Assembly (NCBI GenBank): GCA_030537735.1 | Contig: JAUNVG010000001.1 | Location: 238,160 to 302,159 of the forward strand | Direction: 5' to 3' | Length of the DNA stretch: 64,000 bases | Source of the DNA: Actinomycetaceae bacterium | GTDB lineage: Bacteria; Actinomycetota; Actinomycetes; Actinomycetales; Actinomycetaceae | In this document: positions 4,772 to 21,616 of the stretch, in pieces | Numbering within the stretch: the stretch's first letter is position 1 | Layout of the letters: each line of letters opens with the position of its first letter | Made by a program: the position numbers and the translations under genes | The notes under the pieces: generated by a model | The model's database searches: none | Told to the model about the DNA's origin: nothing | Seen by the model: the letters and a program-made list of their open reading frames with translations, nothing else

Positions 4772-7009
4772 ATGAAGAAAGCCAACTGTTCGGCCCAAGA
4801 CGTCAAACCACTAATAAGTCCGCGCCGCCCCCTCACCGTAGCTATTGACGGCCCTTCCGGCTCTGGTAAGTCCACCATCGCCCGCAGCCTCGCGCGTGGA
4901 CTGGACCTAGACTACCTCGACACCGGCGCCATGTACCGGGCCTTGACTTGGTACTGTTTAGAAAACGACCTGCCCTTAGATGACCATGCGGCAGTCGCAG
5001 GTGCAGCGGATTCCTTCCCTCTGGAGCTGTCCACCGATCCTGACGACTTCAGGGTGCAGGTTGCAGGTGAGGACGTTACCTCCCAAATCCGGGAATCTTT
5101 CATCTCGCAACAGGTTTCAAAGGTCGCCACTAACCTGGATGTGCGCCAAGCCTTGGTGCGTCGCCAACGCGAAATAATCGACCAGTGCCAGGGGCAAGGC
5201 ACCGGCTTAAGCCTGTCCGAGTGGGCAGCTGGGGCTGAGCCTGAAGCCAAGCGCACAGGTAGGGGAGTAGTGGCTGAAGGGCGCGACATCACCACCGTGG
5301 TCGCCCCTGACGCTAATGTGCGCATACTGCTCACAGCCAGTGAGGAAGCGCGCCTACGCCGGCGCGCCCAGCAGTTACACGGGCAGGCAGATGAGGAAAA
5401 ACTCCAAGCTACCCGCGCCGAAGTGGTAGATCGCGACGCGCAGGACTCCACCGTTGTTAACTTCACTGAAGCTGCAGACGGGGTAGTGGAAATCGATTCT
5501 TCCGCGTGGAGCGTGGAAGAAACGCTCTCTTACCTGTACTGCCTGCTGCAGACCCTATTCGGCGAAGATGAAGAAGAGGAAGCCTGCGCGCGAGTAATGC
5601 GTGCTTCCTTGGAGCAATACGACCTAACCGCTGAAGATGCCGCGGTCCTAGAGCTGGAGCCCGACGATGCTGACAGCTCCACGCCGGCGGCGGGGCTACC
5701 CGTTTTAGCGATAATCGGCCGGCCCAACGTGGGTAAATCCACCATGGTAAACCGCATAATCCAAAGACGGGCGGCGGTAGTGCAAGACACTCCCGGAGTC
5801 ACCCGTGACCGCGTTTCCTACCAAGCCCACTGGGCGGGACGGGACTTCACCGTGGTGGACACCGGTGGCTGGGAGCTAGACACCCGCGGGTTGGATAAGT
5901 CCGTTGCCGAACAGGCGGAGATCGCCATTGAAATGGCTGACGCCGTGCTGCTGGTGGTGGATGCCACGGTGGGAGCAACCGCTACCGATGAGCACCTGGT
6001 AAAGGTCCTTCGCCGCAGTGGTAAACCGGTGGTGTTAGCTGCCAACAAGGTTGATTCCGCCGGACAAGAAGCAGATGTTGCCTACCTGTGGTCACTGGGA
6101 TTGGGCGAGCCCTACCCGGTTTCTGCCCTGCACGGGCGCGGCTCGGGGGACCTGCTTGACGCCATTATGGAGGTCTTGCCTCAAGAGTCGGCCCTTGCCC
6201 AAGCCCCACCGGAGGACGGCGTGCGCAGGATTGCTCTGCTGGGGCGACCCAACGTCGGTAAATCCTCATTACTGAATGCGCTCGCCAAAGGGGAGCGGGT
6301 GGTGGTTAACGACCTGGCGGGAACCACGCGCGACCCGGTAGATGAACTGGTTGAGATTGATGGCCGCCCCTGGTGGTTTGTGGACACCGCCGGGATCCGC
6401 CGGAAAATGCACAGGACGTCGGGGGCTGACTACTACGCCTCCCTGCGCACTCAGGCAGCGCTGGAAAAGTCCGAGGTCGCCCTCGTACTGTTGGACGCAT
6501 CGGTCCCGCTGACGGAACAAGACGTACGAATCGTGCAGCAAGCCGTTGATGCCGGGCGCGCACTGGTGATCATTAACAATAAATGGGACCTGGTGGATGA
6601 AGAACGCAGAGACCTGCTGCGCGGTGAACACGCACGCGACCTCGCGCACGTATCTTGGGCATCGACTATTAATATCTCCGCCAAAACCACCTGGCACACC
6701 AACCGGCTGGTGCGTGCCATCGACCAGGCTTTGGACGGGTGGCAGACCCGTATCTCCACAGGTAAGCTCAACTCTTTCCTAGGGGAGTTGGTAGCGGCGC
6801 ACCCGCACCCGGTTCGCGGAGGCAAACAGCCTCGCATACTTTTTGCCACCCAAGCGGGCACGCGCCCGCCGCGTTTCGTCATCTTCACCACCGGATTCCT
6901 TGATCCCGGTTACCGTAGGTTCATAGAACGTCGGTTGAGGGAAACCTTCGGATTCCACGGCACACCCATTCAAATCAGTGTTCGCGTGCGCGAAAAGCGT
7001 CGCAAGTAG
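4772..7009 (+). CDS. cmk-der: Fused cytidylate kinase / GTPase Der (EngA)
   Basis: N-terminal Cmk ([26 protein letters not shown]). An acidic linker follows. Then two Der GTPase domains (GRPNVGKST twice, DTGG/DTAG, NKVD/NKWD) and a KH-like C-terminus. Confidence 0.85.
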
Positions 7010-7020
7010 GAGAAGTCACC

Positions 7021-7980
7021 ATGGCAATTGCAAAGATTTTGCTTTACTACGGGATCACGCCCATATCGGATCCTGAGGCTATTCGCTTATGGCAGCGAGA
7101 ACTCGCTAACAGCCTGGGGTTGCGCGGACGCATAATAGTCTCCCACCAGGGGATTAACGGCACTGTCGGCGGTGACCTGGACGCGGTCAAGCTCTACCGG
7201 CGTCGCACCCGCGAATACCAGGCCTTTGCCGATATAGATTTCAAATGGTCGGAAGGAACCGGACTGGACGAGCACGGGTACTCCCTGGATTTTCCCCGCC
7301 TGTCCGTTAAGGTACGGCCCGAACTCGTATCCTTCGGGGTACCAGAAGCGGTACATGTGGGCGATCGCGGCGTAGTCGGGGGAGGGAAGCATCTTTCCCC
7401 GGAGGAAGTAAACGCCCTGGTAGCCGAACGCGGCGACGAAGTAGCTTTCTTTGACGGGCGCAATGCTTGGGAAGCGCGACTGGGGAAGTTCAAAGACGCC
7501 GTGGTTCCGCCGGTGGGTACCAGTCATGACTTCGCGGCGCAGATAAGTGGTGGGAAGTTCGACCACCTGAAGGATCGCCCGGTAATCACCTACTGCACCG
7601 GGGGAGTGCGCTGTGAGTTCCTCTCCGCCATGCTCCTTCAGCAGGGCTTCAAAGAGGTGTACCAAATTGATGGCGGAATCGTACGCTACGGGGAAAAGTA
7701 CGGTAACAACGGACTGTGGGAAGGGTCTCTAGCCGTTTTTGACGGGCGTGAACTGGTTGACTTTGGCCCGGATGTGAAGACGATTTCTACCTGCGATAGC
7801 TGCGGCCAGCCGACCTCGCTACTGGCTAACTGCGGTGACGACACCTGTGTGCGACGTTTTATTTGCTGCCCGCAGTGTCAGCAGGTGAAGTGCCCCGATC
7901 ACGGTTTGACGAAGGTACGACGCGCCGGCGAACCTTCGATCGCGGACGGCGCCGCCGCCTCCACGGGCGAGCCGCAATAA
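7021..7980 (+). CDS. trhO: Rhodanese-domain tRNA U34 hydroxylase TrhO (UPF0176/YceA family)
   Basis: Motifs GRIIVSHQGINGTVGG and rhodanese active-site loop YCTGGVRCE, with a Cys-rich C-terminus. Confidence 0.8.
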   Translation: MAIAKILLYYGITPISDPEAIRLWQRELANSLGLRGRIIVSHQGINGTVGGDLDAVKLYRRRTREYQAFADIDFKWSEGTGLDEHGYSLDFPRLSVKVRPELVSFGVPEAVHVGDRGVVGGGKHLSPEEVNALVAERGDEVAFFDGRNAWEARLGKFKDAVVPPVGTSHDFAAQISGGKFDHLKDRPVITYCTGGVRCEFLSAMLLQQGFKEVYQIDGGIVRYGEKYGNNGLWEGSLAVFDGRELVDFGPDVKTISTCDSCGQPTSLLANCGDDTCVRRFICCPQCQQVKCPDHGLTKVRRAGEPSIADGAAASTGEPQ

Positions 7981-8893
7981 CGGGGCTGCGACGGTGCCTG
8001 AGCACTGATACCAGCCCTTCCAGGCCAAGTATCGCCACGGCTGTCCACATCCCAATGTAGGTGCCCCACTGATTGCCGGTAATGCGCTCTCCGACGAGGA
8101 CGGCAACTACCGTCACCAAGGCGGGTTCAAGGTAGGAAAGCAGGCCGAAGATACCGTAGGGTAGTAGTTTTGCTGCCACCACGTAAAGCACTGTGCCGAT
8201 TACCGAAATACCGGCCATGAACACCAGTATTACCAGCACAATGGGACGCTCAGCTAAGAGCTCCAAGTCGGCGCGAGTGCCGATGTACCACAGCACTACC
8301 GGTAGGGAAAGGGACATCTCCCACACCAGTGCTCCCACGCCGTCGGTTTCAAACTTGCGGCGGATGACGAAGTAGGCGGGGTAGCCTAAGCACACCAGGG
8401 CGGTCACCCACGATAGGTAGCCGATGCGAGCTATTTCCCAGATCACGGCGAATGCCGCTACCGCGGTGGCGACGTGGGAGAGGAAGCTCAGGCGCTCGCC
8501 GTATAGGAACCTACCTAGCACTACCATTGCCAGCGGCAGCAGGAAATACCCCAAGGTTAGATCCAGGGTATAGCCACTTTGCGGCGCCCAGCCAAACAGC
8601 CACATTTGCATCGCTAGCATGGGGGCGGTGAAGGCGTATGCCAGGAGTTTTTTCGGCTGCGCCACCACCCGTTTTGCTTCCCCAGTTACCCAGAAGAAAC
8701 GTCCGGTCACTAGGAGCGCGATCGTTATGCCTGGGATCGTGAGCAGGATGCGCCAAGCCCACACGTCAATACTGTTAATGGGCGCGATCCAGGCGATCAG
8801 TGCCGCTAAGTAGCTGAAGAGGGCGAAGGCTAGTGAAGACACTACCGAGGCAAAAAGGCCGCGACGATTCATGGGGTGTTTTGTTCCTGGCAC
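7859..8893 (-). CDS. rarD: EamA/RarD-family (DMT superfamily) permease
   Basis: About 10 predicted TM helices and RarD-like sequence. Arg-rich C-terminal tail overlaps the 3' end of trhO. Confidence 0.7.
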   Translation of the reverse strand: MPGTKHPMNRRGLFASVVSSLAFALFSYLAALIAWIAPINSIDVWAWRILLTIPGITIALLVTGRFFWVTGEAKRVVAQPKKLLAYAFTAPMLAMQMWLFGWAPQSGYTLDLTLGYFLLPLAMVVLGRFLYGERLSFLSHVATAVAAFAVIWEIARIGYLSWVTALVCLGYPAYFVIRRKFETDGVGALVWEMSLSLPVVLWYIGTRADLELLAERPIVLVILVFMAGISVIGTVLYVVAAKLLPYGIFGLLSYLEPALVTVVAVLVGERITGNQWGTYIGMWTAVAILGLEGLVSVLRHRRSPVIAARPWRRRRRPRSKVRRRVVPSSNRDRGTSPADTAGSK

Positions 8894-9002
8894 GAGCTGG
8901 GATGGAATGAGTAGTGCAAACTCTACCCGATTTATTTGCTGTTATGCATCCCGTAATCAGCGCGTGAAAGTGACCTTTGTCGCTACCTATTTTGGGTGCC
9001 TG

Positions 9003-10367
9003 TTAGGGCTTGGAATCACTCCTCACGTCCCATCTAGGATCAGATTGCACGCCCTTTGCCACCAGCACAGGATCGGCAGCCACTGGGGTGCGCAGCTTGG
9101 GGTAGCGCTTATCTTCTTTACCCCACCATGGCATGCGAGTGACGAACCCATCCACCGGGGGAGTGGGGGATTGCGGTTCAAGTCCGAAGTCCTGCGGGGT
9201 CTGGGGCAGCATGTCTACCACCCAGTACTTGTCGGCATCGTTAAAGTGCTCTTTAGCGATGGTGCGGTATTCGCCAAGTTCTTGGAAGATGCCGCTGGTG
9301 ACGGGGTTGCGACGCTTAACGATGACGATGTAGAGCCAGTAGGCGAACAGTAAGACGTTGGAAATCAGCGCCAGGCCAGAGCAGACGATATTAGCTGTCG
9401 GGTTCATGGTGGCGAAGTTAGACTGCCCCGGTGCGATGAGGAACTCTGGTAGCAGGTTGTTCATCGCAATCCAGAACATGAGGGTGTAGCAGCGGAACCA
9501 CAGCCACTGGCCTTTGGCCCACCAAAACGCCGGAATAGTGGCGGCAAGTAGTAGCGCCAGGGTGCAGTACCAGGTGTAGTCAGCTAAAGCGTTGTACAAG
9601 AAGGCGTGGTTCCACAGGTCGTAGGCAATGACCCAGGGCCATACCATGTCGACCCAGATCAAGCCCTTGACCTTTTCCTTCGGGTTGGTGGTAACAGCGA
9701 TCTTCGCCCAGCCGGTCATGGTGATGATGTTCAAGCAGCCAGCGATGGCGGACATAATGTTCCAGTAGCCACCAATGGTGCGGAAACCAGTTTCAGGGTC
9801 GATACCAACGTTGGTGGCTGCGAAGTTAGCAGCCACTGCTTGGTACCAGGCATCGGAGTGCAGGGGCTCAGTGACTCCGCGCGTTTCCGGTAGGCCATTG
9901 ATCATGTCGAGGGCGTGGGTGGCGTTGATTTCTTTCAGGCACTGCCAGTTCGCGGCGCAAGTGTTGTAGGCATCGGTGTGGAAGTAGATCGCGATGTCGC
10001 GAATATTTGCTTCCATAATATTGGTGGCGATACCAAGCCAGATGATGAAACCAATAACCATGATGTTGCGTCGGAACTTGCGCGGATTATTGCGCCCCAT
10101 GTATAGGAATACGCCGTTGCAGATGGAGACGGTGACCATGATGACGTACTTGCCGAAGGGGAACCATCCCACCATTGGCACCGCATGGTAGGCAGCGTAT
10201 GGCATGAGGGCGATTCCTCCGACCATCCAGATGGCGAAGACTGTCCATAGCCAGCGCCGGTTGATTTCGGCTACCGCTACTTGCGCTAGGAAGACGACGA
10301 TCCAGATTAGGTACAGCTTTGGGGTGCCGATTTCCCAAAGACCGAGGAAGGTATTCAAGGTGGTCAC
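9003..10367 (-). CDS. Uncharacterised Trp-rich polytopic membrane protein (paralog of 11672..12664)
   Basis: Long ORF with many hydrophobic segments. Clear similarity to the 330-aa ORF, for example GGYWNIMSAIAGCLN / GGAWNIMNGVAGILN and VIAYDLWNHAFLYN / IIAYDLWNFAFVYN. Confidence 0.6.
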   Translation of the reverse strand: MTTLNTFLGLWEIGTPKLYLIWIVVFLAQVAVAEINRRWLWTVFAIWMVGGIALMPYAAYHAVPMVGWFPFGKYVIMVTVSICNGVFLYMGRNNPRKFRRNIMVIGFIIWLGIATNIMEANIRDIAIYFHTDAYNTCAANWQCLKEINATHALDMINGLPETRGVTEPLHSDAWYQAVAANFAATNVGIDPETGFRTIGGYWNIMSAIAGCLNIITMTGWAKIAVTTNPKEKVKGLIWVDMVWPWVIAYDLWNHAFLYNALADYTWYCTLALLLAATIPAFWWAKGQWLWFRCYTLMFWIAMNNLLPEFLIAPGQSNFATMNPTANIVCSGLALISNVLLFAYWLYIVIVKRRNPVTSGIFQELGEYRTIAKEHFNDADKYWVVDMLPQTPQDFGLEPQSPTPPVDGFVTRMPWWGKEDKRYPKLRTPVAADPVLVAKGVQSDPRWDVRSDSKP

Positions 10368-10588
10368 CTTTCTGGTTACGAAGAATTTTCACTATTGGTT
10401 AGAATTTAAAGCTTGCGTTCACAGCCGGGGGAAGGGTTCGTCCTCGCACTGTCAGATTGCACCGCGAATTTAGTTCACATATTCGAACATTCGGGTCTTT
10501 CGTCCACCCTTTTTGTGTCACAAGTCACGTAAACTTGAACTACTTATCTACCGGGGCAACGCCGCCCCCACCAACCTGAATCGAAAGT

Positions 10589-11653
10589 GTGATTAATAAA
10601 ATGACCGCACCTAAACCGTCCATTCTCAGCGGAAAGAACCTCGCCAAACTAGCTGCTGCCTCCACCGCAGCGATCTTTGGGGGGATGTACTACTACAGTC
10701 AGATGACCGGGCAAGCAACCCCGGAAGAAAAGGCTTTCACCTACCCCGGCGATGACCTCATCGACGCCAACTACAAGCACGCGTATTCTTCCACCTACGC
10801 CATCACCATCGACGCCCCCGCCTACGCTGTCTACCGCTATTTCAAGCAGATCGGCGCCCAGAAAGCAGGGTCCTACAGCTCCGAATTCTTAGAACGCATC
10901 TTCGCGCGATTGCCGTTCTACAACTACTACGAACTGCAAGAAGAATTCCAACAACCCGACTCCCTAGTAGCCGGAGACATCGCCGCCTTCGACTTCCACG
11001 GCATGTCCATGGAATGGGTCGACATCGTCCCCGGCAAATACGTGGTCTCTTGGGTAGACACCAAGATGCCGCCCGCCGCCCCCGGATCATTTGCCTTCCG
11101 CTTCCCCTTCATGGACCACTTCGCCGCTGCCTGGTGCTTCTACATGGTGCCCCTCAAAGGCGAACGCACCCGCCTCATCAACCACTGGCGCATCGGCTAC
11201 GAACCGGCGAATTTCCTCACCAAAGCCATCAACTGGCTCAACATCGAACTCGTCGGTGGCTGCATGACGAATATGCAAAACACCTACATGAAACGCACCG
11301 TGGAGTTTCGCAAGAAGGAACAGTGGACCGGCAAATTCATGCGCGGCGTACTGGGAGGAAAGTTCTTCTCCGGAGGCGCACCCGCCTCGCGCTGGAGTGA
11401 CACCCCACTATTCGAAGACACCTACACCCAGTGGTTCCGTTACGGGCGCCAAAACCCAGCCTCCAGCGAAATCCGCCCAGCCCGCACCGAAGACCCGAAC
11501 TGGCCACCCACAGCACCGGGAACCCCCTGGGCGGAGGAAGTCGACTCGGAGTACTTCGAAGGCTGGACCGAACCGGAGTTTTCCTGGGATGAACAGATCC
11601 GCCAGAAGATGGAACGCACCTACCTGCCCAACTGGGGCAAAGAAAACAAGTAG
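10589..11653 (+). CDS. Membrane-anchored SRPBCC/START-like protein with Trp/Pro-rich C-terminal tail
   Basis: N-terminal hydrophobic anchor LAKLAAASTAAIFGGMYYY. The pattern ITIDAPAYAVYRYFKQIG..GSYSSEFLE ... VAGDI ... CFYMVPLKGERTRLINHWR resembles actinobacterial SRPBCC proteins. Start may be GTG 10589 or ATG 10601. Confidence 0.5.
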   Translation: MINKMTAPKPSILSGKNLAKLAAASTAAIFGGMYYYSQMTGQATPEEKAFTYPGDDLIDANYKHAYSSTYAITIDAPAYAVYRYFKQIGAQKAGSYSSEFLERIFARLPFYNYYELQEEFQQPDSLVAGDIAAFDFHGMSMEWVDIVPGKYVVSWVDTKMPPAAPGSFAFRFPFMDHFAAAWCFYMVPLKGERTRLINHWRIGYEPANFLTKAINWLNIELVGGCMTNMQNTYMKRTVEFRKKEQWTGKFMRGVLGGKFFSGGAPASRWSDTPLFEDTYTQWFRYGRQNPASSEIRPARTEDPNWPPTAPGTPWAEEVDSEYFEGWTEPEFSWDEQIRQKMERTYLPNWGKENK

Positions 11654-11671
11654 GGAAAGGGCGATGCCACT

Positions 11672-12664
11672 ATGATCGCGCCACTGGTCACCGACCTTAC
11701 ACCGACCTATCCCACCCTATTCTTCTTCGAAGTGGGGGAGTGGGCGGACTACCTGGGGCTAATCCTGGTAACCGCCGGACTGGCCTTCGGAGCATGGCTG
11801 ATCAAGCGCTACAAATGGGCGGTATTGGTGTTCTTCATCGCAGCCCCACTACTGCTTACTATCTTCTGGTGGCCGTACTCCACCGAAGGCACAACCACCG
11901 CCGGGTGGTTCCCGGTGGTCAAGCACTACTCCGCGCTCTTGGGTTCGCTTTCATTAGTGGCATTGCAGTACTTCCCGAAGCTGCGCAACAAGTACTGGTA
12001 CCTATGCCTGCCTCCGCTGCTGCTAGCGGTCAATATCTTGGAGGCAGTGGTGCGCGACTTCCAATGCTTCTTCGTTTACGGACCCGACCCGAACCAAGGT
12101 GGCATGCTCACCCTGGGTGGGGCGTGGAACATCATGAACGGGGTAGCGGGGATCTTAAACCTGCTGGCCATCTCCGGCTGGGTGGGGATATACGTACTGA
12201 AGGGACGTTCCAAGGCGATCATTTGGGGTGACCTCACCATTTGGTGGATCATCGCCTACGACTTGTGGAACTTCGCTTTCGTCTACAACTGTATTTCCGA
12301 CCACGCTTGGTACTCGGGGCTGGCACTGCTGGCATCGTGCACCATTCCGGTACTGTTCAAACGCACTCGGGGATCGTGGATCCAATACCGGGCGTACACG
12401 CTGACGCTTTGGACAGCGTTCGTCCTCACCTTCCCCACGTTCACCAACGCCACCATCTTCGAACACCGCTCCTCCCACAACGAGGTAGCCCTGTTCCTGG
12501 TGTCGTTTGCCTCCCTGGCGGCTAATATCGCAGTATTTGCCTGGCATGTCTACCGCATTCGTCGCCACCGGCTCAACCCGTTCAAGGACGAGATCTACGC
12601 CGGAACCAAGGCCTACGAAACCCCGCGGATAGTTGGAGAGGAAGAACGCGTCCTCGCCGCCTAG
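11672..12664 (+). CDS. Uncharacterised Trp-rich polytopic membrane protein (paralog of 9003..10367)
   Basis: GGGAAAGGG Shine-Dalgarno 18 nt after the previous stop. Paralogous motifs GWFPVVK, NILEAVVRD, GGAWNIMNGVAGILN and IIAYDLWNFAFVYN. Confidence 0.6.
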   Translation: MIAPLVTDLTPTYPTLFFFEVGEWADYLGLILVTAGLAFGAWLIKRYKWAVLVFFIAAPLLLTIFWWPYSTEGTTTAGWFPVVKHYSALLGSLSLVALQYFPKLRNKYWYLCLPPLLLAVNILEAVVRDFQCFFVYGPDPNQGGMLTLGGAWNIMNGVAGILNLLAISGWVGIYVLKGRSKAIIWGDLTIWWIIAYDLWNFAFVYNCISDHAWYSGLALLASCTIPVLFKRTRGSWIQYRAYTLTLWTAFVLTFPTFTNATIFEHRSSHNEVALFLVSFASLAANIAVFAWHVYRIRRHRLNPFKDEIYAGTKAYETPRIVGEEERVLAA

Positions 12665-12685
12665 ACAGCGGGCGTGAGGTAAAGC

Positions 12686-12733
12686 AAAATCCCCGCGATA
12701 TCGACTTTTCGTTGACATCGCGGGGATTTTCTT
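12686..12733. terminator. Bidirectional intrinsic terminator hairpin
   Basis: AAAAT-CCCCGCGAT...ATCGCGGGG-ATTTT. A-tract and T-tract flank a GC stem between the membrane gene (+) and tRNA-Pro (-). Confidence 0.6.
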
Positions 12734-12737
12734 ACTG

Positions 12738-12811
<74 letters not shown>

Positions 12812-12935
12812 TGTCAATCATTCGTTGAATGCGACAGATTGATTCTAGCGCACCCAAACCTAACTTAGCCAATCCGCAAACCTTGACCCCGCTCACATTA
12901 CCTGCTTTGCGCCCTGACGCTGATAGCATCGAAAC

Positions 12936-14108: not shown

Positions 14109-14867
14109 ATGAGAATTCACGAATTCGGGCCGGACAAGGCCCCGAAGGTCGTACTGCTGCACGTAGCTGGCGCCCGCTGGGACTACTTCGAATACGTGGT
14201 CGCGCTTTTGGAAAACGACTTCCACGTCCTCGTGCCGGCTATCCCCGGATATGACGAAACCGATCCAGAGCTAGACTTCACCAGCGTCGAAGACATAGCC
14301 ACCAACCTGGCTCGGCAGCTACAGGCAAGGGGGATCGAAACTATAGACCTACTTTTGGGATGTTCGATGGGTGGTTCCATTGCCTTAAAGATGGCAGCGG
14401 AGCACAAGGTAGGGGTTCGTAACTTAGTACTCGACGGCGCCATATTGCCCTACCAGTTACCTTGGCTCGCGACCCGCGCCATCGCCGTTAGGGACTTCCT
14501 CATGGTTTCGGCAGGAAAGTACGCGGCAGTGACAGTCTTGGAAAAGGCTTTCGCCACCGAGCAATACAGCCGCGAAGACGTTGAATACATCAAGGAAGTA
14601 CTAGGTTCGATGAGCGCTCGCACCATTTGGCGCACGTTCGAGTCATGCAATAACTACACATTGCCGCCGCGGCTCCCACACTCGGTCGGCTACGTCGAAT
14701 ACTGGTACGGCGATAGGGAAGCCAGAGCCAGGCGCAGCGACATTCGCTACCTTAAACAGGTCTGTGCGCAGGCAAAGATAATCCGCATCCAAGACCGTGG
14801 GCACTGCGCCACCGCCACTTTCTTCCCCCAGCAGATGGCTGCGCGTATACGCAAACTAGTGCCATAA
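14109..14867 (+). CDS. Alpha/beta-fold hydrolase
   Basis: Nucleophile elbow GCSMGG (GxSxG), late His (DRGH), and typical length. Confidence 0.7.
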   Translation: MRIHEFGPDKAPKVVLLHVAGARWDYFEYVVALLENDFHVLVPAIPGYDETDPELDFTSVEDIATNLARQLQARGIETIDLLLGCSMGGSIALKMAAEHKVGVRNLVLDGAILPYQLPWLATRAIAVRDFLMVSAGKYAAVTVLEKAFATEQYSREDVEYIKEVLGSMSARTIWRTFESCNNYTLPPRLPHSVGYVEYWYGDREARARRSDIRYLKQVCAQAKIIRIQDRGHCATATFFPQQMAARIRKLVP

Positions 14868-14907
14868 TTTCAATGTCGGCTAAGAACTTGAAGCTAGTAG
14901 GATCGCT

Positions 14908-15897
14908 ATGTGCACCACCTTTTGTTACCGCCCCCAGGCTGTTAAAGGCGCCTATTTCGGGCGCAGCATGGATATTGACTGCTCCTTCGGTGAACATCTT
15001 GTAGTGTCCCCACGCGCGGCTAAGCGCAGCTACAAGCACCTGGACAATCCTCCCACCACCCAAATGTCACTTATGGGGATGGCTTCAGTGGTGAACGAAA
15101 CCGCGCTTTATGCCGAGGCGATTAGCGAAAGTGGCCTGTACTGCGCGGGTTTGAATTTCCCCCGCACCGCCCACTACGGCAAGCCTATTTCCGGGGCCAT
15201 TAACCTGGCGCCCTATGAGCTAATTCCCTACCTGCTTACCCAGGCGCGCGACCTGAACCAGGCTCGTGAGATCTTGCGTCAAGTTAACCTGTGCGACACC
15301 GCATTCATGCCGGGGCTACCGGTTGCCCCCATGCATTTTTTCCTCTCCGACGGTGGCAATCACCTGATTATCGAACCGCAGGCCGATGGCATTCATATTT
15401 ACGAGGACGACCTGGGCGTCCTTACCAATAACCCGCCGTATCCGACGCATCGGGCGAATATTGAAAACTACCTGCACCTGTCGACAGCCAATCGCGGTGG
15501 GGGAGTGATCGAACCGACCGCCTACGGAGAAGGCCTTGGCTTAGTGGGGCTTCCCGGCGACTTTTCCCCCATGTCCCGGTATGTGCGGACCGCGATACTC
15601 AAGGCGGCGGCGCAGCAGGTGCCTGCACAGCACTCACCTGAGCCTGTTTTCGAAGTACTGCACCTGCTGCACGCTGTGGCCATGGTGCGCGGCAGTGTCG
15701 TGACCGCGGCAGGAAATTACGATATCACCCGCTACTTCGCTTGCTTCGGGCAAGAGGACTTAACCTGTACCTTCCACACCTACGACAACTTCCAACCGTA
15801 CGCGGTAAGGTTACGCGACCATGACCTCGACTCCAGTGACTTAGTGGTCTACCCACTGCCCGAGGCAGGTGAACTGCCGACACCGCCTCGTAAGTAG
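14908..15897 (+). CDS. Choloylglycine hydrolase family Ntn hydrolase (bile salt hydrolase / penicillin V acylase type)
   Basis: Starts MCTTF (Cys2 nucleophile) followed by FGRSMD, closely matching the MCTG...FGRNMD N-terminus of characterised BSHs. Confidence 0.8.
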   Translation: MCTTFCYRPQAVKGAYFGRSMDIDCSFGEHLVVSPRAAKRSYKHLDNPPTTQMSLMGMASVVNETALYAEAISESGLYCAGLNFPRTAHYGKPISGAINLAPYELIPYLLTQARDLNQAREILRQVNLCDTAFMPGLPVAPMHFFLSDGGNHLIIEPQADGIHIYEDDLGVLTNNPPYPTHRANIENYLHLSTANRGGGVIEPTAYGEGLGLVGLPGDFSPMSRYVRTAILKAAAQQVPAQHSPEPVFEVLHLLHAVAMVRGSVVTAAGNYDITRYFACFGQEDLTCTFHTYDNFQPYAVRLRDHDLDSSDLVVYPLPEAGELPTPPRK

Positions 15898-15908
15898 ACC
15901 CTAAATTT

Positions 15909-17897
15909 CTAGATCGCGCGGAACGAAAGCTGTTCGGCTTTCTTCGCCCTGCCTGCTTGGAACACGATTGCCACGGTAGCTATCGCCACTCCAATCAAGT
16001 CGGTCATGGTGTTAGGCGACATCATCGATAGCGCCGCGACGAAGAACAGGATGCGGATGCACCACGGGATCTGCACCATCAGGTGTCCTTCCACTGCCAC
16101 GGCCAGCATGAGCACCCCGAAGATCGCGGTCAAGGTCACGGAGATCACTTCAGTCCACGATCCTTGCATCAGCAAAGCTGGGTTCAGTACGAACATGAAG
16201 GGAATGATGTAACCAGCTAGTGCCAGGCGCATTGACTGCACTCCTGTGCGCATGGGGTCTGCTCCCGATAGTCCTGCGGCGGCGAAGGAAGCCAGCGCCA
16301 CCGGTGGGGTGATGTTCGCGAACAGGCCGAAGTAGAAGACGAACATGTGAGCAACCAGCGGTTCTACCCCCAGTTCACCTAAGGCTGGGGCCGCCATGGT
16401 GGCGGTAATGATGTAGGTGGGGATGGAAGGCAGTCCCATGCCCAGGATGATTGAGGCAATCATTGTTAGGAACAAGGAGAACACCAGGTTGCCGGCACCG
16501 AAGGCTACGATGGCGTGGGCTAGTTTCACGCCGAATCCGGTGAGGGTTACAACCCCAACGATAATCCCAACGGCCGCGCACGCTACCGCCACTGACACAG
16601 CTGTCTTCGCACCGTCTTCGAGGGAGTCCACAATGTCCTTTGGACTCATACGGGTGGCGGGCCGCAGTTCGGCGACCACCACGGTGAGAAGGATGGTGAG
16701 TAGCGCCGAGAATAAAATGGTGCGCCCGGAAAAGAACAGCATGTAAATCAAGAACGCCAGCGGGATAAGCAGGTGCCCGCGTTCACGCATTACTTCTTTC
16801 ACTGCCGGCAGGTTTTCGCGCGATATACCCTTCAGGCCGCGGCGAGTGGCACGCAAGTGCACTTGGGCAATGATTCCCAGGTAGTAAAGCAGCGCCGGGA
16901 TAATGGCGGCCAAGGCGATCTGGTTGTAGGGGATCCCCAGGGTTTCAGCCATAATGAACGCCGACGCGCCCATAATGGGTGGCAGGATTTGCCCACCTAC
17001 CGAGGCGGTGGATTCAACCGCGCCGGCAAATAGCGGTCGGTACCCTACGCGTTTCATCAGGGGGATGGTGAAGGCACCGGTAGTTACCACGTTGGCCACG
17101 GCCGCGCCGTTAATGGATCCTAAGAATCCGGAAGCCAGCACTGCCACTTTCGCCGGTCCGCCACGCGATTGTCCGGCGAGGGCGAGGGCGAAGTCGTTGA
17201 AGAACTGTCCCATACCTGACTTTTGTAGTACCGCCCCGAACAGTACGAATAGGAATATGTAGGAAGCTGACACGGCGATGGCGGTGCCGTAGACACCTTC
17301 GGCGGTGAGGTAGAGGAAGTTAATCATGTCCCCTAGTTCGTAGCCGCGGTGCCGGAAGGTGCCTGGCACCATTCGACCAAACAGGCCGTAGCCGAGGAAT
17401 ACTAGCGCCAAGATGGGAAGTGCCCAGCCGGTAAGACGCCTCGCTGCTTCGATGACGAGGACGATGAGGATGGCACCGAAGACAATGTCACTGGTGGTGG
17501 GTTCCCCGGCTCGGCGGACAATGTCGGAGTAGTTAGCCACTACATAAACCGCGGTTGATATGGATGCCACGATTAACACCAGGTCATACACGGGGATCTT
17601 GTAGCGGTTGGCGCTCTTATACGGCGGGTAAAGGGCGAAGCCGAGCGTCAAGATGGCGGCCACGTGAATGGCGCGGTGCTGCAGTATCGGTGGGGTTCCG
17701 AAGTAGGAGGTGTACATGTGGTAGAGCGAAAGCATGATAGCCACTATCGACACTGCGGTAGCTGCAGGCTTCCATTGGATTTCGCGCAGGCGGGATTCGC
17801 GATCGAACTTTGCCAGTACTTCCTTCGTATCTGGGGTGTGTTCTTCGCCTGGTTCTATTTCAACCTCAAGATCGCGTGGCGGGCGGTTTTCACGCAT
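15909..17897 (-). CDS. TRAP transporter fused permease (TAXI type)
   Basis: 662-aa polytopic protein adjacent to DUF1850 and a TAXI receptor. Sequence typical of fused DctQM-like permeases. Confidence 0.85.
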   Translation of the reverse strand: MRENRPPRDLEVEIEPGEEHTPDTKEVLAKFDRESRLREIQWKPAATAVSIVAIMLSLYHMYTSYFGTPPILQHRAIHVAAILTLGFALYPPYKSANRYKIPVYDLVLIVASISTAVYVVANYSDIVRRAGEPTTSDIVFGAILIVLVIEAARRLTGWALPILALVFLGYGLFGRMVPGTFRHRGYELGDMINFLYLTAEGVYGTAIAVSASYIFLFVLFGAVLQKSGMGQFFNDFALALAGQSRGGPAKVAVLASGFLGSINGAAVANVVTTGAFTIPLMKRVGYRPLFAGAVESTASVGGQILPPIMGASAFIMAETLGIPYNQIALAAIIPALLYYLGIIAQVHLRATRRGLKGISRENLPAVKEVMRERGHLLIPLAFLIYMLFFSGRTILFSALLTILLTVVVAELRPATRMSPKDIVDSLEDGAKTAVSVAVACAAVGIIVGVVTLTGFGVKLAHAIVAFGAGNLVFSLFLTMIASIILGMGLPSIPTYIITATMAAPALGELGVEPLVAHMFVFYFGLFANITPPVALASFAAAGLSGADPMRTGVQSMRLALAGYIIPFMFVLNPALLMQGSWTEVISVTLTAIFGVLMLAVAVEGHLMVQIPWCIRILFFVAALSMMSPNTMTDLIGVAIATVAIVFQAGRAKKAEQLSFRAI

Positions 17898-17899
17898 TC

Positions 17900-18370
17900 C
17901 TACTCCTTTACTGACAGCTCCACAAAGGCGTGGTGCTCAATATCTTCGCTGCGTATCAGGTGCTGTCCCACTCGCAGGCTGTGTTTGGTGTGGTGGGAAT
18001 GTATCCACCGAACCTGTGGCATGGGGCGGTGGATTTGGCGGACATGTATCACACCGTCCTCGATAGAGGTAACGCCACCGGGATCGGCGGGCACCCCGGC
18101 TCCGTATCCGCGTAAGGTGATTTCTTCAAGGTAGAGTTCACTGCCTCCAACCACGTAGGTTTCCGTCCATGGTTCGTGTTCGATGGAGTGGATCCATGAC
18201 AGTGTTGCGCTCAATCCATCTTCGGCCTTAACGCAGTAGTAGTCTTCCCCGGTGCGCTGGTTGGTTACGCATAGCTGCGGATGGGGCTGCCTCATTAAGG
18301 CAGTGAGGATCACCGCCACCGTGATGGCAACGGTGATCCCCACGATGGATAGGGTTTTACTTAAGCGCAC
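17900..18370 (-). CDS. DUF1850-domain protein (TAXI-TRAP associated)
   Basis: Small protein with an N-terminal TM helix, located between the TAXI receptor and the permease. WIHSIEHEPWTE motif resembles DUF1850. Confidence 0.65.
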   Translation of the reverse strand: MRLSKTLSIVGITVAITVAVILTALMRQPHPQLCVTNQRTGEDYYCVKAEDGLSATLSWIHSIEHEPWTETYVVGGSELYLEEITLRGYGAGVPADPGGVTSIEDGVIHVRQIHRPMPQVRWIHSHHTKHSLRVGQHLIRSEDIEHHAFVELSVKE

Positions 18371-19358
18371 CCTTTTCCTTGAAGTACTTCACTGCGCCGG
18401 GGTGCAAGTCCACGGCCAGACCATCTTCGATCGAATCCAAGGTGATCTTGGTGGCCGCCTTGTGCGCCTGGTGGATACTATCTAGGTTTTCGAACAGTGC
18501 CTTGGTGATGGCGTAAACCTGTTCGTCGCTGAGGTCGGGGGACACTAGCAGCTGGTTAGTGATGGAAGCGGTAGGCACGTCTTCTTCCTGGTCGTAGGTG
18601 CCACCGGGAATGGCGTCTTGTTTGAAGAAGGGGTACTTCTCAATCAAGGCTTTCATCCCATCACCTTCAATCGGCACGATAACGACGTCATGAGAAGTCA
18701 CTAGATCCATAACGGAGGAGTTCGGCAGCCCCGAGGTTACGAACGCCGCGTCAACTTGGCCGTTCTTCATCTGGTCAATGGAATCTGCGTAGGACAGGAA
18801 GTCTTCTTCAATGTCGTCGTATGACATGCCGTGGGCTTCTAGGATCATCTGCGCGTTCAGCTCCACCCCGGAGTTTTGGTCACCTACACCGATACGTTTG
18901 CCTTTCATGTCAGCTACTGACTTGATGCCTGACTGTTCGGTGGTGACGATTTGCACGAAGTTCGGGTAGAGCGCGGTGATGGCTTTGAGGTCTTTGAGCT
19001 GTTCCTTGCCTTCGAAGGGTCCGGTGCCTTCTACTGCTTGACGGGTGGCATCACCCATGGCGAAAGCGATTTCGGCCTTGCCACTGGTTATGAGGGTTAT
19101 GTTTTCCACCGAGGCTCCGGTTGCTTGCACGGAGGAGTCGGCTCCTAGTTGGTCTTTGAGTACTTGCGCCATGGTGGCGCCGATTTGGTAGTAGGGGCCG
19201 GAAGTGCCACCGGCTGCAATGGTTACGAAGTCAACTGAGGCTTGTGTTCCACCATCGGAGGATCCGCCGTTTCCAGATGAGGAGGGGGCGTCTGCTGAGC
19301 AGGCCGATAGGGTCACAGCCGCGCTGGCGGCGAGGGCTAGTAGTACGCGTCGTCGCAT
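18357..19358 (-). CDS. TAXI-family TRAP solute-binding lipoprotein
   Basis: Lipobox LALAASAAVTLSAC and motif AAGGTSGPYYQIG typical of TAXI receptors. Confidence 0.85.
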   Translation of the reverse strand: MRRRVLLALAASAAVTLSACSADAPSSSGNGGSSDGGTQASVDFVTIAAGGTSGPYYQIGATMAQVLKDQLGADSSVQATGASVENITLITSGKAEIAFAMGDATRQAVEGTGPFEGKEQLKDLKAITALYPNFVQIVTTEQSGIKSVADMKGKRIGVGDQNSGVELNAQMILEAHGMSYDDIEEDFLSYADSIDQMKNGQVDAAFVTSGLPNSSVMDLVTSHDVVIVPIEGDGMKALIEKYPFFKQDAIPGGTYDQEEDVPTASITNQLLVSPDLSDEQVYAITKALFENLDSIHQAHKAATKITLDSIEDGLAVDLHPGAVKYFKEKGALK

Positions 19359-19581: not shown

Positions 19582-21510
19582 TCAGTTCAGCTGTTCAAAC
19601 TTACGCGCCCACGCCGAGCGAATCGGGTTGGCGTTGGCAAGCATAATGTTGAACCGGTCGTTAGCGATCTCAATCACTTCGGCTAGCGCCACCAAGTGTT
19701 CCTGAGCGGGGGAGTTCTCCAAGCGGCGCACTCCTTGATCGATAATCTGCTGGCGCGAGTCCATGGTGGTTAGGCAAGCCACGAAGGGGAACCCAAACTT
19801 CGCACGATACTGTTCACAAAGCTCACGCAGCTGTTCCTGTTCGGAATCGTTCATTTCCCCTAACGCCAGCGAACCAATATCACGGGAGATTTCTGCAGCT
19901 TCGCCTTCGTCAGAAAGAAGTAGCTGAGCCATATCGGGGTAGTCGTGTATCAACTTATCTTGACGCTCCACGCCGGCGGTCAGCACCGCTTCTTGAATGG
20001 TGTCACGCAACTGCTGGACGTCTTTGAAGGGACGCCCTTGCCAGGCTTGTTCAAGCGGCCATACTTGGTCGTTGAAAAGGGGCGCAAAAGTGCGTACGAA
20101 CTCGGTTTGATCCATGGCGTTAACCTGCTCTAAACCAATCGCCCGCCCGTCACTTCCGGCAGCTACATCTGGACCGGATTGGCGCCCTACGTGGAAGAAC
20201 AGCAGGTTCAGCACGATGGCGGTAATGGATCCCAGTGTCACCCCGGAGGCGAAGAAAATCTGAGCCCAAGATGGGAATACCGCCGCGATGCCTGGTTTGA
20301 ATGAAACCAGCATTGCCAGCCCAAGGGAAGTGGTAACAATGACTGCGTTGCGGGCATCATGCAGGTCCACTTTCGAAAGCATCTGAATGCCAACCAGCGC
20401 CACGTTGGCAAACAACGCTAGGGAGGCTCCGCCCAGCACTGGGCCGGGGATGGAAGCCACTATCGCTCCGGCCTTGGGGATCAGGCCAAGGATGATCATA
20501 ATGACCCCGGCGGCGGCCACTACCCAGCGTGATTTCACTCGAGTTAGGCGCACCAGTCCGACATTTTGCGCAAAGCAGGTGTAGGGGAAGGAGTTGAGCA
20601 CTCCTCCCAAAGCGGTTGATAGCCCGTCAGCTCGCAAGGCGGCAGCAATGTGTTCCTTCGTTATGCGCCGTCCCACGATTTCGCCGGCTGCAAAGACATC
20701 GCCGGTGGTTTCCACCATGGTTATGAGCATGACGATAATCATGGAGATGGCACCGCTGAGGGCAAACTTTGGCCACCCGAAGTAGAACGGGGTAGTTACC
20801 CCCACCCAGGAGGAGGTGCTGACCGCCCCGAATGAAGCATCCCCCAGTGCGATCGCCACCGCCGTGCCGATCACCAGGCCCAGCAATACGGAGATGGTTC
20901 CGAGGAAGCCTTTGAAGAACCGCTGCACCACGATGATGATTGCCAAGGTGCCGGCGGCGTAGGCCAGGGAGCGCATGCCTATGGGTTGGGGCGGGTTCAT
21001 CTCGTCGACGCGGTTGATGATGTCTCCGGCGCTCACGCCCAGCAGGGTGATGCCCATGGTGATTAGGACGGTGCCAATCACTACTTGGGGAAAGAACCTG
21101 ATAAAGCGAGCGAATAGGGGAGCGGCGAAGAAGGTGAACAGGCCGGCAATAATGATTGATCCGTAGATATAGGGAAGGCCCGCAACACCTCCGTCCGGTC
21201 CGGTGACTGCGAGCCCAATAGCAATGATGGGGGAGATAGCGGTGGTTGTGACACCTTGGATAATGGGTAGTCTTACGCCGACTTTCCAAAATCCAACGGA
21301 TTGGATCAAGGTGGCGATCCCGCAGGTGAATAGGTCGGCGTTAATAAGGTGGATGGTTTCTTCCGGCCCTAGTTTCAGCCCACCTGCGATTACCAGTGGC
21401 ACTACTACCGCGCCGGCGTAGAATGCCAAGACGTGCTGGACTGATAGCAGCGCGGTCTTTGGTAGGGGAGGGAGGGCGTCGACGGGGTGAATCTGGCTGG
21501 GATTGCGCAT
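19582..21510 (-). CDS. NCS2/NAT nucleobase (xanthine/uric acid-type) permease fused to a C-terminal OHCU-decarboxylase-like domain
   Basis: NAT signature QNVGLVRLTR. C-terminal 183 aa have RPF...FGFPFVAC...RRLENSPAQE typical of UraD. Start set at ATG 21510 (GAGGA Shine-Dalgarno) rather than ORF-track 21822, which would overlap the divergent gene. Confidence 0.75.
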   Translation of the reverse strand: MRNPSQIHPVDALPPLPKTALLSVQHVLAFYAGAVVVPLVIAGGLKLGPEETIHLINADLFTCGIATLIQSVGFWKVGVRLPIIQGVTTTAISPIIAIGLAVTGPDGGVAGLPYIYGSIIIAGLFTFFAAPLFARFIRFFPQVVIGTVLITMGITLLGVSAGDIINRVDEMNPPQPIGMRSLAYAAGTLAIIIVVQRFFKGFLGTISVLLGLVIGTAVAIALGDASFGAVSTSSWVGVTTPFYFGWPKFALSGAISMIIVMLITMVETTGDVFAAGEIVGRRITKEHIAAALRADGLSTALGGVLNSFPYTCFAQNVGLVRLTRVKSRWVVAAAGVIMIILGLIPKAGAIVASIPGPVLGGASLALFANVALVGIQMLSKVDLHDARNAVIVTTSLGLAMLVSFKPGIAAVFPSWAQIFFASGVTLGSITAIVLNLLFFHVGRQSGPDVAAGSDGRAIGLEQVNAMDQTEFVRTFAPLFNDQVWPLEQAWQGRPFKDVQQLRDTIQEAVLTAGVERQDKLIHDYPDMAQLLLSDEGEAAEISRDIGSLALGEMNDSEQEQLRELCEQYRAKFGFPFVACLTTMDSRQQIIDQGVRRLENSPAQEHLVALAEVIEIANDRFNIMLANANPIRSAWARKFEQLN

Positions 21511-21616
21511 AGTGATCCTCACATCGTGATGCTGGATATGTTCACTATAGAATGGCGCCAGGTAAACTCCTAAATTCTTCTCGACAGTTAGAACTACCAT
21601 CTGCAAGGACTGATTA

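Follow-up and report, generated by a model that had tools for sequence, protein, structure and literature searches.

Introduction

Transport that relies on a tethered or lipid-anchored binding protein follows an established logic, and this logic supplies the analogy that we apply here to a three-gene locus of an Actinomycetaceae bacterium, which lies in a stretch of 64,000 nucleotides of contig JAUNVG010000001.1 (positions 238,160 to 302,159 of the forward strand; hereafter the window). Two of the three genes encode members of the Pfam family DUF5692 (PF18948), a family with no assigned function and no solved structure. We refer to the long minus-strand paralog as A, to the short plus-strand paralog as B, to the gene between them, which encodes a protein with a predicted SRPBCC fold, as M, and to A, M and B together as the triad. 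A literature search (DUF5692, PF18948, IPR043747, isoprene reductase) returned one co-occurrence statistic and no functional statement: DUF5692 co-occurs at 0.4 with homologs of IsrA, a putative isoprene reductase, and the IsrA homologs in turn co-occur with HypA (0.73) and HypB (0.56) (PMC10134865).

An earlier note on this DNA, made by reading the sequence, described two paralogous tryptophan-rich membrane proteins with a membrane-anchored SRPBCC-like protein between them, and ventured that they handle lipids or other hydrophobic molecules. Here we show that the three genes are linked almost universally wherever M occurs, and we propose, with a probability of about 40%, that their products form one membrane complex in which a DUF5692 heteromer would translocate a hydrophobic ligand with the help of a tethered, extracytoplasmic SRPBCC subunit.

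Results

The triad is a self-contained unit

The triad stands on its own and is inserted into varying genomic contexts. A scan with an M profile, taking one genome per species, returned 89 relatives, and the best 80 loci were kept; the counts of triad loci given below rest on these, and gene content was established by calling open reading frames (ORFs) and searching them with the three window proteins by phmmer. An A-type gene stands beside M in 80 of 80 loci, and a B-type gene is found in the fetched flank in 77 of 80; one of the three exceptions, L074, ends within the M gene. A and M are arranged divergently in 80 of 81 loci (window included), and in 62 loci B comes directly after M on its strand, the estimated gap (mostly −28 to +18 nt) being of the size usual for translational coupling. 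Some genomes have B in convergent orientation or a few kb distant, and Corynebacterium kutscheri and the C. ulcerans/ramonii/silvaticum group hold full triads in which B comes first, followed by M on the other strand and by A. The carriers belong to the Actinomycetaceae, Corynebacterium (including C. ulcerans), Austwickia and the Propionibacteriaceae, and the triad was found in about 80 host-associated actinobacterial species. The earlier note had named conserved co-occurrence in related genomes as a check on its grouping of the three genes, and the counts bear that grouping out.

We did not recover a fourth shared gene when all flanking ORFs of the 80 loci were clustered: the clusters consisted of shadow ORFs, lineage-specific synteny and generic ABC ATPases, the last being the only cross-genus neighbour cluster (21/80 loci, at variable positions). 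Pfam scans of the 30 nearest neighbours, from 15 genera, gave no common theme; the neighbours are unrelated (MFS, MprF, MCP, tRNA synthetases, UvrA, FKBP, CAMP factor, DNA methylase and others), and neither the flank clustering nor these scans linked biosynthetic genes to the triad.

Individual loci nevertheless have neighbours of their own. In Arcanobacterium phocae (L088, 11770-18110) a 1118-aa protein with two HtaA domains and LRR, together with an HmuTUV-type heme ABC transporter, directly adjoins the triad. A link of the triad to heme or iron was considered and rejected: HtaA-HmuTUV genes stand beside the triad of this species only, and the association was judged a coincidence because FecCD is found at 3/80 loci and HtaA at 1/80. 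A MerR/TipAS-type regulator adjoins the triad in one Corynebacterium. The loci titled Xylanimonas cellulosilytica 352_XCEL (L018) and Sanguibacter keddieii 250_SKED (L022) carry the triad together with lineage-specific flanking clusters common to the Schaalia/Pauljensenia group; these two may be mislabelled assemblies or may reflect a recent transfer of the region.

A co-evolves with M

Clustered at 90% identity, A comprises about 100 clusters (all labelled DUF5692), M 88 clusters (51-95% identity) and the DUF5692/B-like proteins at least 964. A co-evolves with M: the pairwise-distance matrices of 71 complete triads correlate with r = 0.85 for A-M, 0.76 for M-B and 0.76 for A-B. Two complete, diverged triads occur per genome in Boudabousia liubingyangii (L001, L058) and in Actinomycetaceae bacterium TAE3-ERU4 (L003, L023), and B. 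marimammalium appears to have two as well (L054, plus proteins P0020, P0092 and P0358). In all three proteins, the triad of the window falls together with one triad each of B. liubingyangii and TAE3-ERU4. As A and M of the second Boudabousia triads (L058, L054), unlike their B, are mutual nearest neighbours, it seems that the whole triad, or at any rate its A-M pair, was duplicated or acquired as one block; the duplicated triads possibly differ in ligand specificity.

Mean pairwise divergence within the triad proteins is 25-30% (identity about 70-75%) despite hosts as different as Actinomycetaceae, Corynebacterium, Austwickia and Propionibacteriaceae, which points to strong constraint, to horizontal spread among animal-associated Actinobacteria, or to both. 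Two relatives of M at 33-39% identity, P0209 and P0211, were considered as possible older triads and discarded, as they are not adjacent to DUF5692. Plasmid records number only two, both from Firmicutes and each with a solo DUF5692.

A and B are paralogous members of DUF5692

A and B align over 197 aa with 39% identity (BLASTP, E = 4e-37), and a second, N-terminal segment aligns at E = 0.001; every motif pair that had been quoted in favour of their paralogy was found in the translations. Both belong to DUF5692, whose gathering threshold is 27 bits: B matches over its full length (E = 2e-114, 382.3 bits), and A in two pieces (E = 2e-58, 198.3 bits) because of an inserted loop. DUF5692 is the sole Pfam family reported for either protein at E ≤ 1, NCBIfam gives nothing for A or B, and the A and B orthologs already carry the PF18948 annotation in the database. 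The earlier statement that their shared sequence blocks fit no characterised family thus stands as far as characterised families go, yet both proteins do have a place, in a function-less Pfam family. Similarity to a well-characterised family, which would have told against a novel module, was not found: besides DUF5692, searches of PDB sequences and folds gave no significant match. In detail, sequence searches of A and B against PDB were empty, and a profile search yielded nothing below E = 5. The tryptophan-rich sensory proteins (TspO/MBR) were rejected as relatives, since there is no TspO_MBR match at E ≤ 1 and about nine transmembrane helices are modelled, compared with the five of the TspO/MBR architecture.

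The AlphaFold model of B (predicted local distance difference test, pLDDT, 87.8; predicted template modelling score, pTM, 0.87) has about nine transmembrane helices and two short hairpins, and the helix list combined with the loop charges suggests that the N-terminus is probably outside and the C-terminus inside. A Foldseek search of this model against PDB, a method that is less sensitive for all-helical membrane proteins, gave a best E of 0.25 (probability 0.18, TM-score ≤ 0.24). HHalign comparison of the N-terminal and C-terminal halves of DUF5692 detected no internal repeat (probability 0.3%).

Alignment of A-type, B-type and distant members (alignment A2) contains 31 invariant columns, and the same motifs are invariant in an alignment of distant members only (A3). 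The core residues kept by both A and B (in B numbering, K84, N121, E124, R128, D129, W152, N153, D187, Y196, D197, W199, N200, R240 and N285) are of types K, N, E, R, D, W and Y and sit in predicted transmembrane helices. Judged from these alignments, neither A nor B looks degenerate as a subunit: both keep all family-invariant core residues. The invariant columns of A2 and A3 hold no His, Cys or Met; the set is made up of W/Y/F/N/D/K/R.

A differs from B in an extra loop and in a C-terminal tail of about 100 aa, the latter absent from the earlier note. The loop, which had been put at about 70 aa with two cysteines, measures about 55-70 aa and includes HTDAYNTCAANWQC; its cysteines, C137 and C143, are kept by every one of 78 orthologs. 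The loop preceding the adjoining helix (residues 84-101) contains five K/R and no acidic residue, and the insert contains four K/R and nine D/E. By the positive-inside rule, a preceding loop with K/R but no acidic residue and a net-acidic insert would place the insert outside; the insert is therefore probably extracytoplasmic, with C137 and C143 probably disulfide-bonded. Actinobacteria commonly oxidise exported cysteine pairs by MdbA-type systems. A "WGKE" motif that seemed to link the tail of A to the C-terminus of M was dropped, its conservation being absent among A orthologs.

M has a predicted SRPBCC fold behind an N-terminal anchor

M itself has no match in Pfam or NCBIfam at E ≤ 1, and among 28 orthologs searched against Pfam, three give a sub-threshold match to Polyketide_cyc2 (best E = 0.006). 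The structural evidence is clearer. The AlphaFold model of M (pLDDT 71.7, pTM 0.74) consists of a helix at residues 15-39, a beta-alpha-alpha-beta6-alpha domain (one strand, two helices, six strands and a long helix, in this order) and a mostly non-regular C-terminal tail. Foldseek against PDB gave 160 matches at E ≤ 0.001, and the 50 best listed are all SRPBCC proteins (probability 0.96-1.0, E from 1e-5 to 2e-4, identity 8-15%); those listed include PYR/PYL receptors, Bet v 1, the aromatase/cyclases ZhuI and BexL, and rhizobial START-like proteins. The target-normalised TM-scores are modest (0.27-0.51) because 62 model residues have low confidence. A wider M-superfamily profile also matched BexL among PDB sequences (E = 8e-4). 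The SRPBCC assignment of the earlier note is thereby upheld at the level of the modelled fold: that the core of M adopts an SRPBCC fold is supported, and membership of a curated SRPBCC sequence family is not.

M is strongly conserved, being 63-83% identical to aligned full-length orthologs from several actinobacterial orders, with about 25 invariant polar residues among them. Residues 90-123 are almost invariant, yet poorly modelled, and this segment could possibly serve as a gate or a partner interface. The C-terminal extension of about 110 aa is rich in Trp and Pro and carries the motifs TQWxRYGR, NPNWPPTGPGTPW, EPEFSWEEQIRQK and LPNWGK; it is missing from distant relatives of about 230 aa and is partial in P0209 and P0211, and the distant M superfamily aligns with the core of M only.

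Gly and Ala abound in the anchor helix, its N-flank is rich in K/R, and the invariant motifs FSQ and GKAT come after it. M has no cysteine near the anchor and hence no lipobox. Net charge across the orthologs is about +2.4 in the N-flank of the anchor and about −0.4 in its C-flank, and the median maximum 17-residue hydropathy is 1.48. This charge bias favours an N-in/C-out orientation, which would put the SRPBCC domain outside the cytoplasm. The more distant relatives agree with such an orientation: the proteins of about 230 aa have an unmistakably hydrophobic transmembrane helix at the position of the M anchor, and the fusion protein P0240 (see below) keeps a transmembrane helix that separates its flavoprotein part from the M-like one, K/R lying on the flavoprotein side.

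Distant relatives of DUF5692 and M keep similar company

A metagenome scan for distant DUF5692 proteins returned at least 529 relatives. None of the 85 loci of non-actinobacterial DUF5692 that were examined has an M-like neighbour. The commonest neighbour, at about 25 of 63 informative loci, is a divergent TetR regulator directly upstream; an enzyme of about 894 aa with Fer4, Fer4_20 and Pyr_redox_2 domains, of the IsrA type, adjoins DUF5692 in 12 and a CobW/HypB GTPase in 9 of the same 63. At the Myxococcales loci L083/L084 and at 12 of the loci L090-L169, DUF5692 stands with a TetR regulator, the CobW/HypB GTPase and the roughly 894-aa IsrA-type Fe-S flavoenzyme, and the adjacency of DUF5692, IsrA-type enzyme and HypB agrees with the published co-occurrence (PMC10134865). 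At L081 and on a JGI contig, DUF5692 lies beside OEP/MFP/ABC-2 efflux modules under TetR control.

The distant relatives of M tell a similar story from the other side. An N-terminally anchored SRPBCC family of about 230 aa, with no Pfam assignment, has the core of M and comprises 404 relatives, and several of its members (P0240, P0270, P0291, P0302 and L173 992-3879) carry M-like domains in operons or fusions. An M-like domain occurs in an operon under TetR control, where an amine-oxidase-type flavoprotein and a 4Fe-4S protein flank it; fused to an amine-oxidase-type flavoprotein that weakly resembles HpnE and protoporphyrinogen oxidase (HpnE/PPO/CrtI-like); and fused to a domain of four transmembrane helices with sub-threshold similarity to ICMT/PEMT. 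TetR regulators commonly sense small hydrophobic ligands. By sequence, then, both DUF5692 and the M-like proteins keep company with TetR regulators or with enzymes whose relatives act on hydrophobic substrates; this company, reached from two independent directions, is circumstantial, and it is the sole functional signal. The suggestion of lipid or hydrophobic-molecule handling gains from it the independent backing of both protein types, while still being a guess.

Layout and regulation of the locus

The features of the locus are collected in Table 1. The three ORFs were reproduced in the window with the positions and lengths first reported for them, and so was the placement of the block between rarD and a tRNA-Pro, with the qualification that the EamA gene scores just below the TIGR00688 cut-off. 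The length of M needs revision. The longest ORF opens at the GTG at 10589, and all M homologs begin where Met5 of this ORF aligns; the ATG at 10601 is therefore the probable true start, giving a product of 350 aa. For A, the database gene call is 451 aa, compared with the 454-aa ORF. The spacer GGAAAGGGCGATGCCACT separates the stop codon of M (11651-11653) from the ATG of B (11672); read directly, it confirms both the 18-nt distance and, in its purine-rich stretch, the Shine-Dalgarno (SD)-like sequence that had been noticed there. GC content shows no sharp break over the triad block.

Table 1. Features of the triad locus and its flanks (window coordinates)
Feature	Position	Strand	Description or basis
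Gene A	9003..10367	minus	454-aa ORF; long DUF5692 paralog, polytopic membrane protein with extra loop and C-terminal tail of about 100 aa
A-specific loop subdomain, about residues 125-200	9768..9995	minus	C137/C143 conservation across 78 A orthologs
Divergent A/M intergenic region	10368..10588	.	Presumed site of two promoters
Gene M	10589..11653	plus	354-aa ORF; putative membrane-anchored protein of predicted SRPBCC fold
M N-terminal anchor helix, residues 15-39	10631..10705	plus	AlphaFold helix, pLDDT 80-90
M predicted SRPBCC (helix-grip) core, about residues 50-240	10736..11308	plus	Model secondary structure and Foldseek
M Trp/Pro-rich C-terminal extension, about residues 241-354	11309..11650	plus	Invariant alignment columns; triad clade only
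M-B spacer, 18 nt, operon junction	11654..11671	plus	SD-like GGAAAGGG stretch; direct sequence reading
Gene B	11672..12664	plus	330 aa; canonical DUF5692, about nine transmembrane helices
rarD-like EamA gene, left flank	7859-8893	minus	TIGR00688, E = 1.5e-36, 126 bits against a cut-off of 130
tRNA-Pro(GGG), right flank	12737-12811	minus	

An Rfam scan of 8800-12900 returned only the tRNA and sub-threshold noise, with no riboswitch or leader RNA. Orthologous A/M spacers mostly measure 97-362 bp; k-mer enrichment over 52 dereplicated orthologous A/M intergenic regions did not rise above shuffled controls, SD-like words excepted, and thus gave no shared operator, and a scan of the window region for promoter and terminator consensus sequences stayed at background level.

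Elsewhere in the window, three further regions deserve mention. At 4772-7009 (plus strand) a single 745-aa ORF joins cytidylate kinase (Cmk) to the double-GTPase Der/EngA with its KH-like domain, the two parts being connected by an acidic linker of about 60 residues. At 19582-21822 (minus strand) a 746-aa ORF combines Xan_ur_permease with a C-terminal OHCU decarboxylase domain and so couples a purine/urate transporter with a urate-degradation enzyme in one polypeptide. Just past the tRNA, at 14109-19358, lies a cluster of four genes, for an alpha/beta hydrolase, an amidase of the choloylglycine-hydrolase family (CBAH), a 662-aa protein with a TRAP DctM domain and an NMT1_3-type substrate-binding protein, none of which is conserved beside the triads of other genomes.

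Discussion

Our favoured reading, translocation of a hydrophobic ligand by a complex of A, M and B, can be laid out as follows. The DUF5692 subunits A and B would form a heteromeric path across the membrane, with the buried polar and aromatic core that both keep; M, tethered by its N-in/C-out helix, would hold its SRPBCC pocket on the outer face, where it may capture or receive a hydrophobic ligand at the cell surface; and M would dock on the putatively disulfide-stabilised outer loop that only A possesses, which would explain the constant linkage and co-evolution of A and M. The ligand could be isoprenoid-like or another unsaturated lipid. As no ATPase belongs to the unit, transport would be facilitated or ion-coupled, and as the carriers are animal-associated, we lean slightly to uptake or scavenging of a host-derived lipid.

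Several considerations weigh against this reading. Transport, ligand binding and complex formation are all indirect proposals drawn from sequences and models. The B model resembles no known transporter fold in PDB by Foldseek, and DUF5692 has no internal repeat, unlike many transporters; the many invariant polar residues in M and in the DUF5692 core suit catalysis at least equally; and the M-like domains found elsewhere are partnered by enzymes, not by transporters. Small alkenes such as isoprene need no transporter, so the IsrA-like link is no specific argument for transport. The proposed topology was derived solely from charge bias, and the anchor of the window M is only weakly hydrophobic, no 19-residue window reaching a Kyte-Doolittle mean of 1.4. 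Lastly, neither the Rfam scan nor the k-mer analysis of the 52 intergenic regions gave a regulator or inducer signal.

A bolder and doubtful extension would go beyond the single locus: DUF5692 would be an unrecognised fold or family of translocators for hydrophobic, isoprenoid-like molecules; the triad would represent a new class of binding-protein-assisted secondary transporters, in which a START-like surface domain loads or unloads a heteromeric channel; and through it, host-associated Actinobacteria such as C. ulcerans, Schaalia, Mobiluncus and Arcanobacterium would exchange lipid with the animal host.

The main rival to transport is catalysis. The triad could be a membrane-embedded enzyme complex in which DUF5692 acts on a lipid or isoprenoid (as isomerase, cyclase, transferase or hydrolase) and modifies an envelope or acquired lipid, with M as a catalytic or substrate-presenting subunit, as in polyketide cyclases/aromatases and norcoclaurine synthase. 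Many invariant charged and polar residues in the predicted transmembrane core, common to A, B and distant phyla, speak for it, as does the constraint on M, whose identity and invariant polar residues would be unusual for a simple lipid carrier; the fused or co-operonic flavoprotein, Fe-S protein and ICMT/PEMT-like domain, the aromatase/cyclase BexL as closest PDB sequence match of the M superfamily, and the lack of a transporter-like fold or repeat in DUF5692 point the same way. The B model, however, shows no similarity to a known membrane enzyme fold in PDB by Foldseek either, neither Pfam nor NCBIfam revealed a signature of cofactor binding or catalysis, the triad has no linked biosynthetic genes, and two paralogs plus a tethered pocket protein without pathway genes nearby fit stand-alone transport better; we consider an enzyme complex unlikely. 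We rank below it a proposal that differs from our favoured reading in the direction of transport only, namely export or envelope delivery of a cell-made lipid, glycolipid or toxic hydrophobic compound through an outward-facing M, in the manner of LprG-Rv1410 or of a detoxification module. The distant DUF5692 genes in or beside TetR-controlled OEP/MFP/ABC-2 efflux clusters, the frequency of TetR neighbours, the predicted outward position of the M pocket and the MerR/TipAS-type regulator beside one Corynebacterium triad are in its favour, but the actinobacterial triad has neither a conserved regulator nor an energy-coupling component, and its carriers include both mycolate (Corynebacterium) and non-mycolate (Actinomycetaceae) genera, which argues against a lineage-specific envelope lipid.

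Two further explanations appear very improbable. DUF5692 could be a nickel/cobalt permease and the triad a metal-uptake unit, as the CobW/HypB GTPase and the IsrA-like enzyme beside DUF5692 (9-12 of about 63 environmental loci) and the published IsrA, HypA and HypB statistics quoted above might suggest; we rejected a nickel permease because His, Cys and Met are all missing from the invariant residues of the DUF5692 core and the regulators belong to the TetR type, not to NikR, RcnR or ArsR, and in addition the actinobacterial partner is an SRPBCC protein with a predicted hydrophobic pocket, and heme/metal-chelate ABC genes are not enriched near triads, as the FecCD and HtaA counts show. Alternatively, the triad could be a ligand-sensing receptor, with M binding a small hydrophobic signal in the way of PYR/PYL and A/B transducing or gating the response. 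The abscisic-acid receptors (PYR/PYL) at the top of the Foldseek matches of M and the conserved, poorly modelled, gate-like segment 90-123 would fit, but PYR/PYL are ranked among many SRPBCC proteins at 8-15% identity, which indicates a common fold rather than a common function, and the flank clustering and neighbour scans linked neither a signalling domain nor a kinase, phosphatase or transcription factor to the triad.

If the triad is a functional unit, it would be a new type of membrane system, the membrane parts of which have no characterised homolog and no PDB neighbour. DUF5692 was catalogued already, as an uncharacterised family without a PDB fold neighbour, and M falls outside all curated SRPBCC models; the combination of a polytopic DUF5692 protein with a surface-tethered START-like domain has no bacterial description in the literature searched. 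With no match among described systems, the three-part architecture is new in kind, and the function given to it here is a proposal. Among the carriers are commensals and opportunists of the mouth and the urogenital tract (Schaalia, Actinomyces, Mobiluncus, Varibaculum, Gleimia), pathogens of animals (Arcanobacterium, Trueperella, Austwickia) and, from the zoonotic species of the diphtheria group, C. ulcerans, C. ramonii and C. silvaticum, and the strong conservation across animal-associated Actinobacteria of several orders suggests a role in host-linked lipid or hydrophobic-metabolite physiology. Assigning a function to the triad would also annotate the larger DUF5692 family, with its hundreds of environmental members that often stand beside IsrA-like reductases, and the widespread, Pfam-unassigned family of anchored SRPBCC proteins. 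These prospects should be tempered: conserved DUF modules are common, and no long-standing question depends on the triad.

Compared with known systems, the triad as we picture it would share with ABC importers that use substrate-binding proteins, with TRAP and TTT transporters and with the mycobacterial LprG-Rv1410 pair the logic of a pocket protein on the outer face, co-operonic polytopic subunits and hand-over of the ligand. It differs from ABC, TRAP and TTT systems in that no conserved ABC ATPase, DctQM or TctABC is found among its flanking genes; from LprG-Rv1410 in that A and B are not MFS proteins and have no MFS partner, M has no lipobox, and the predicted fold of M is SRPBCC rather than that of LprG or of periplasmic binding proteins; and from binding-protein transporters as a group in that the DUF5692 subunit, judged by the B model, has a fold with no PDB neighbour. 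From nickel/cobalt permeases (NiCoT, HupE/UreJ, CbiM), A and B are set apart by the lack of a Pfam match and of an invariant His signature.

Within the SRPBCC superfamily (START, Bet v 1, PYR/PYL, the aromatase/cyclases ZhuI and BexL, CoxG), the core of M shares the predicted helix-grip fold and has weak sequence links to Polyketide_cyc2 and BexL; it passes no curated model, bears an N-terminal anchor and a Trp/Pro-rich tail of about 110 aa, and is far more conserved across orders than typical SRPBCC ligand binders. The IsrA neighbourhoods of anaerobes are the only published context of DUF5692 (PMC10134865), and their adjacency of DUF5692, HypB, Fe-S flavoenzyme and TetR is reproduced in our Myxococcales and metagenome loci; the actinobacterial triad, in contrast, has no IsrA-like, HypA/B or TetR gene nearby, and the SRPBCC partner is missing from the IsrA neighbourhoods. 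DUF5692 proteins elsewhere are usually single-copy, stand beside TetR or IsrA-like genes and, at the 85 loci examined, never beside an M-like gene. A and B are bona fide members of the same family and retain its invariant residues, and A is, in addition, a subtype confined to the triad, distinguished from other DUF5692 proteins by its extra Cys-pair loop and its long C-terminal tail.

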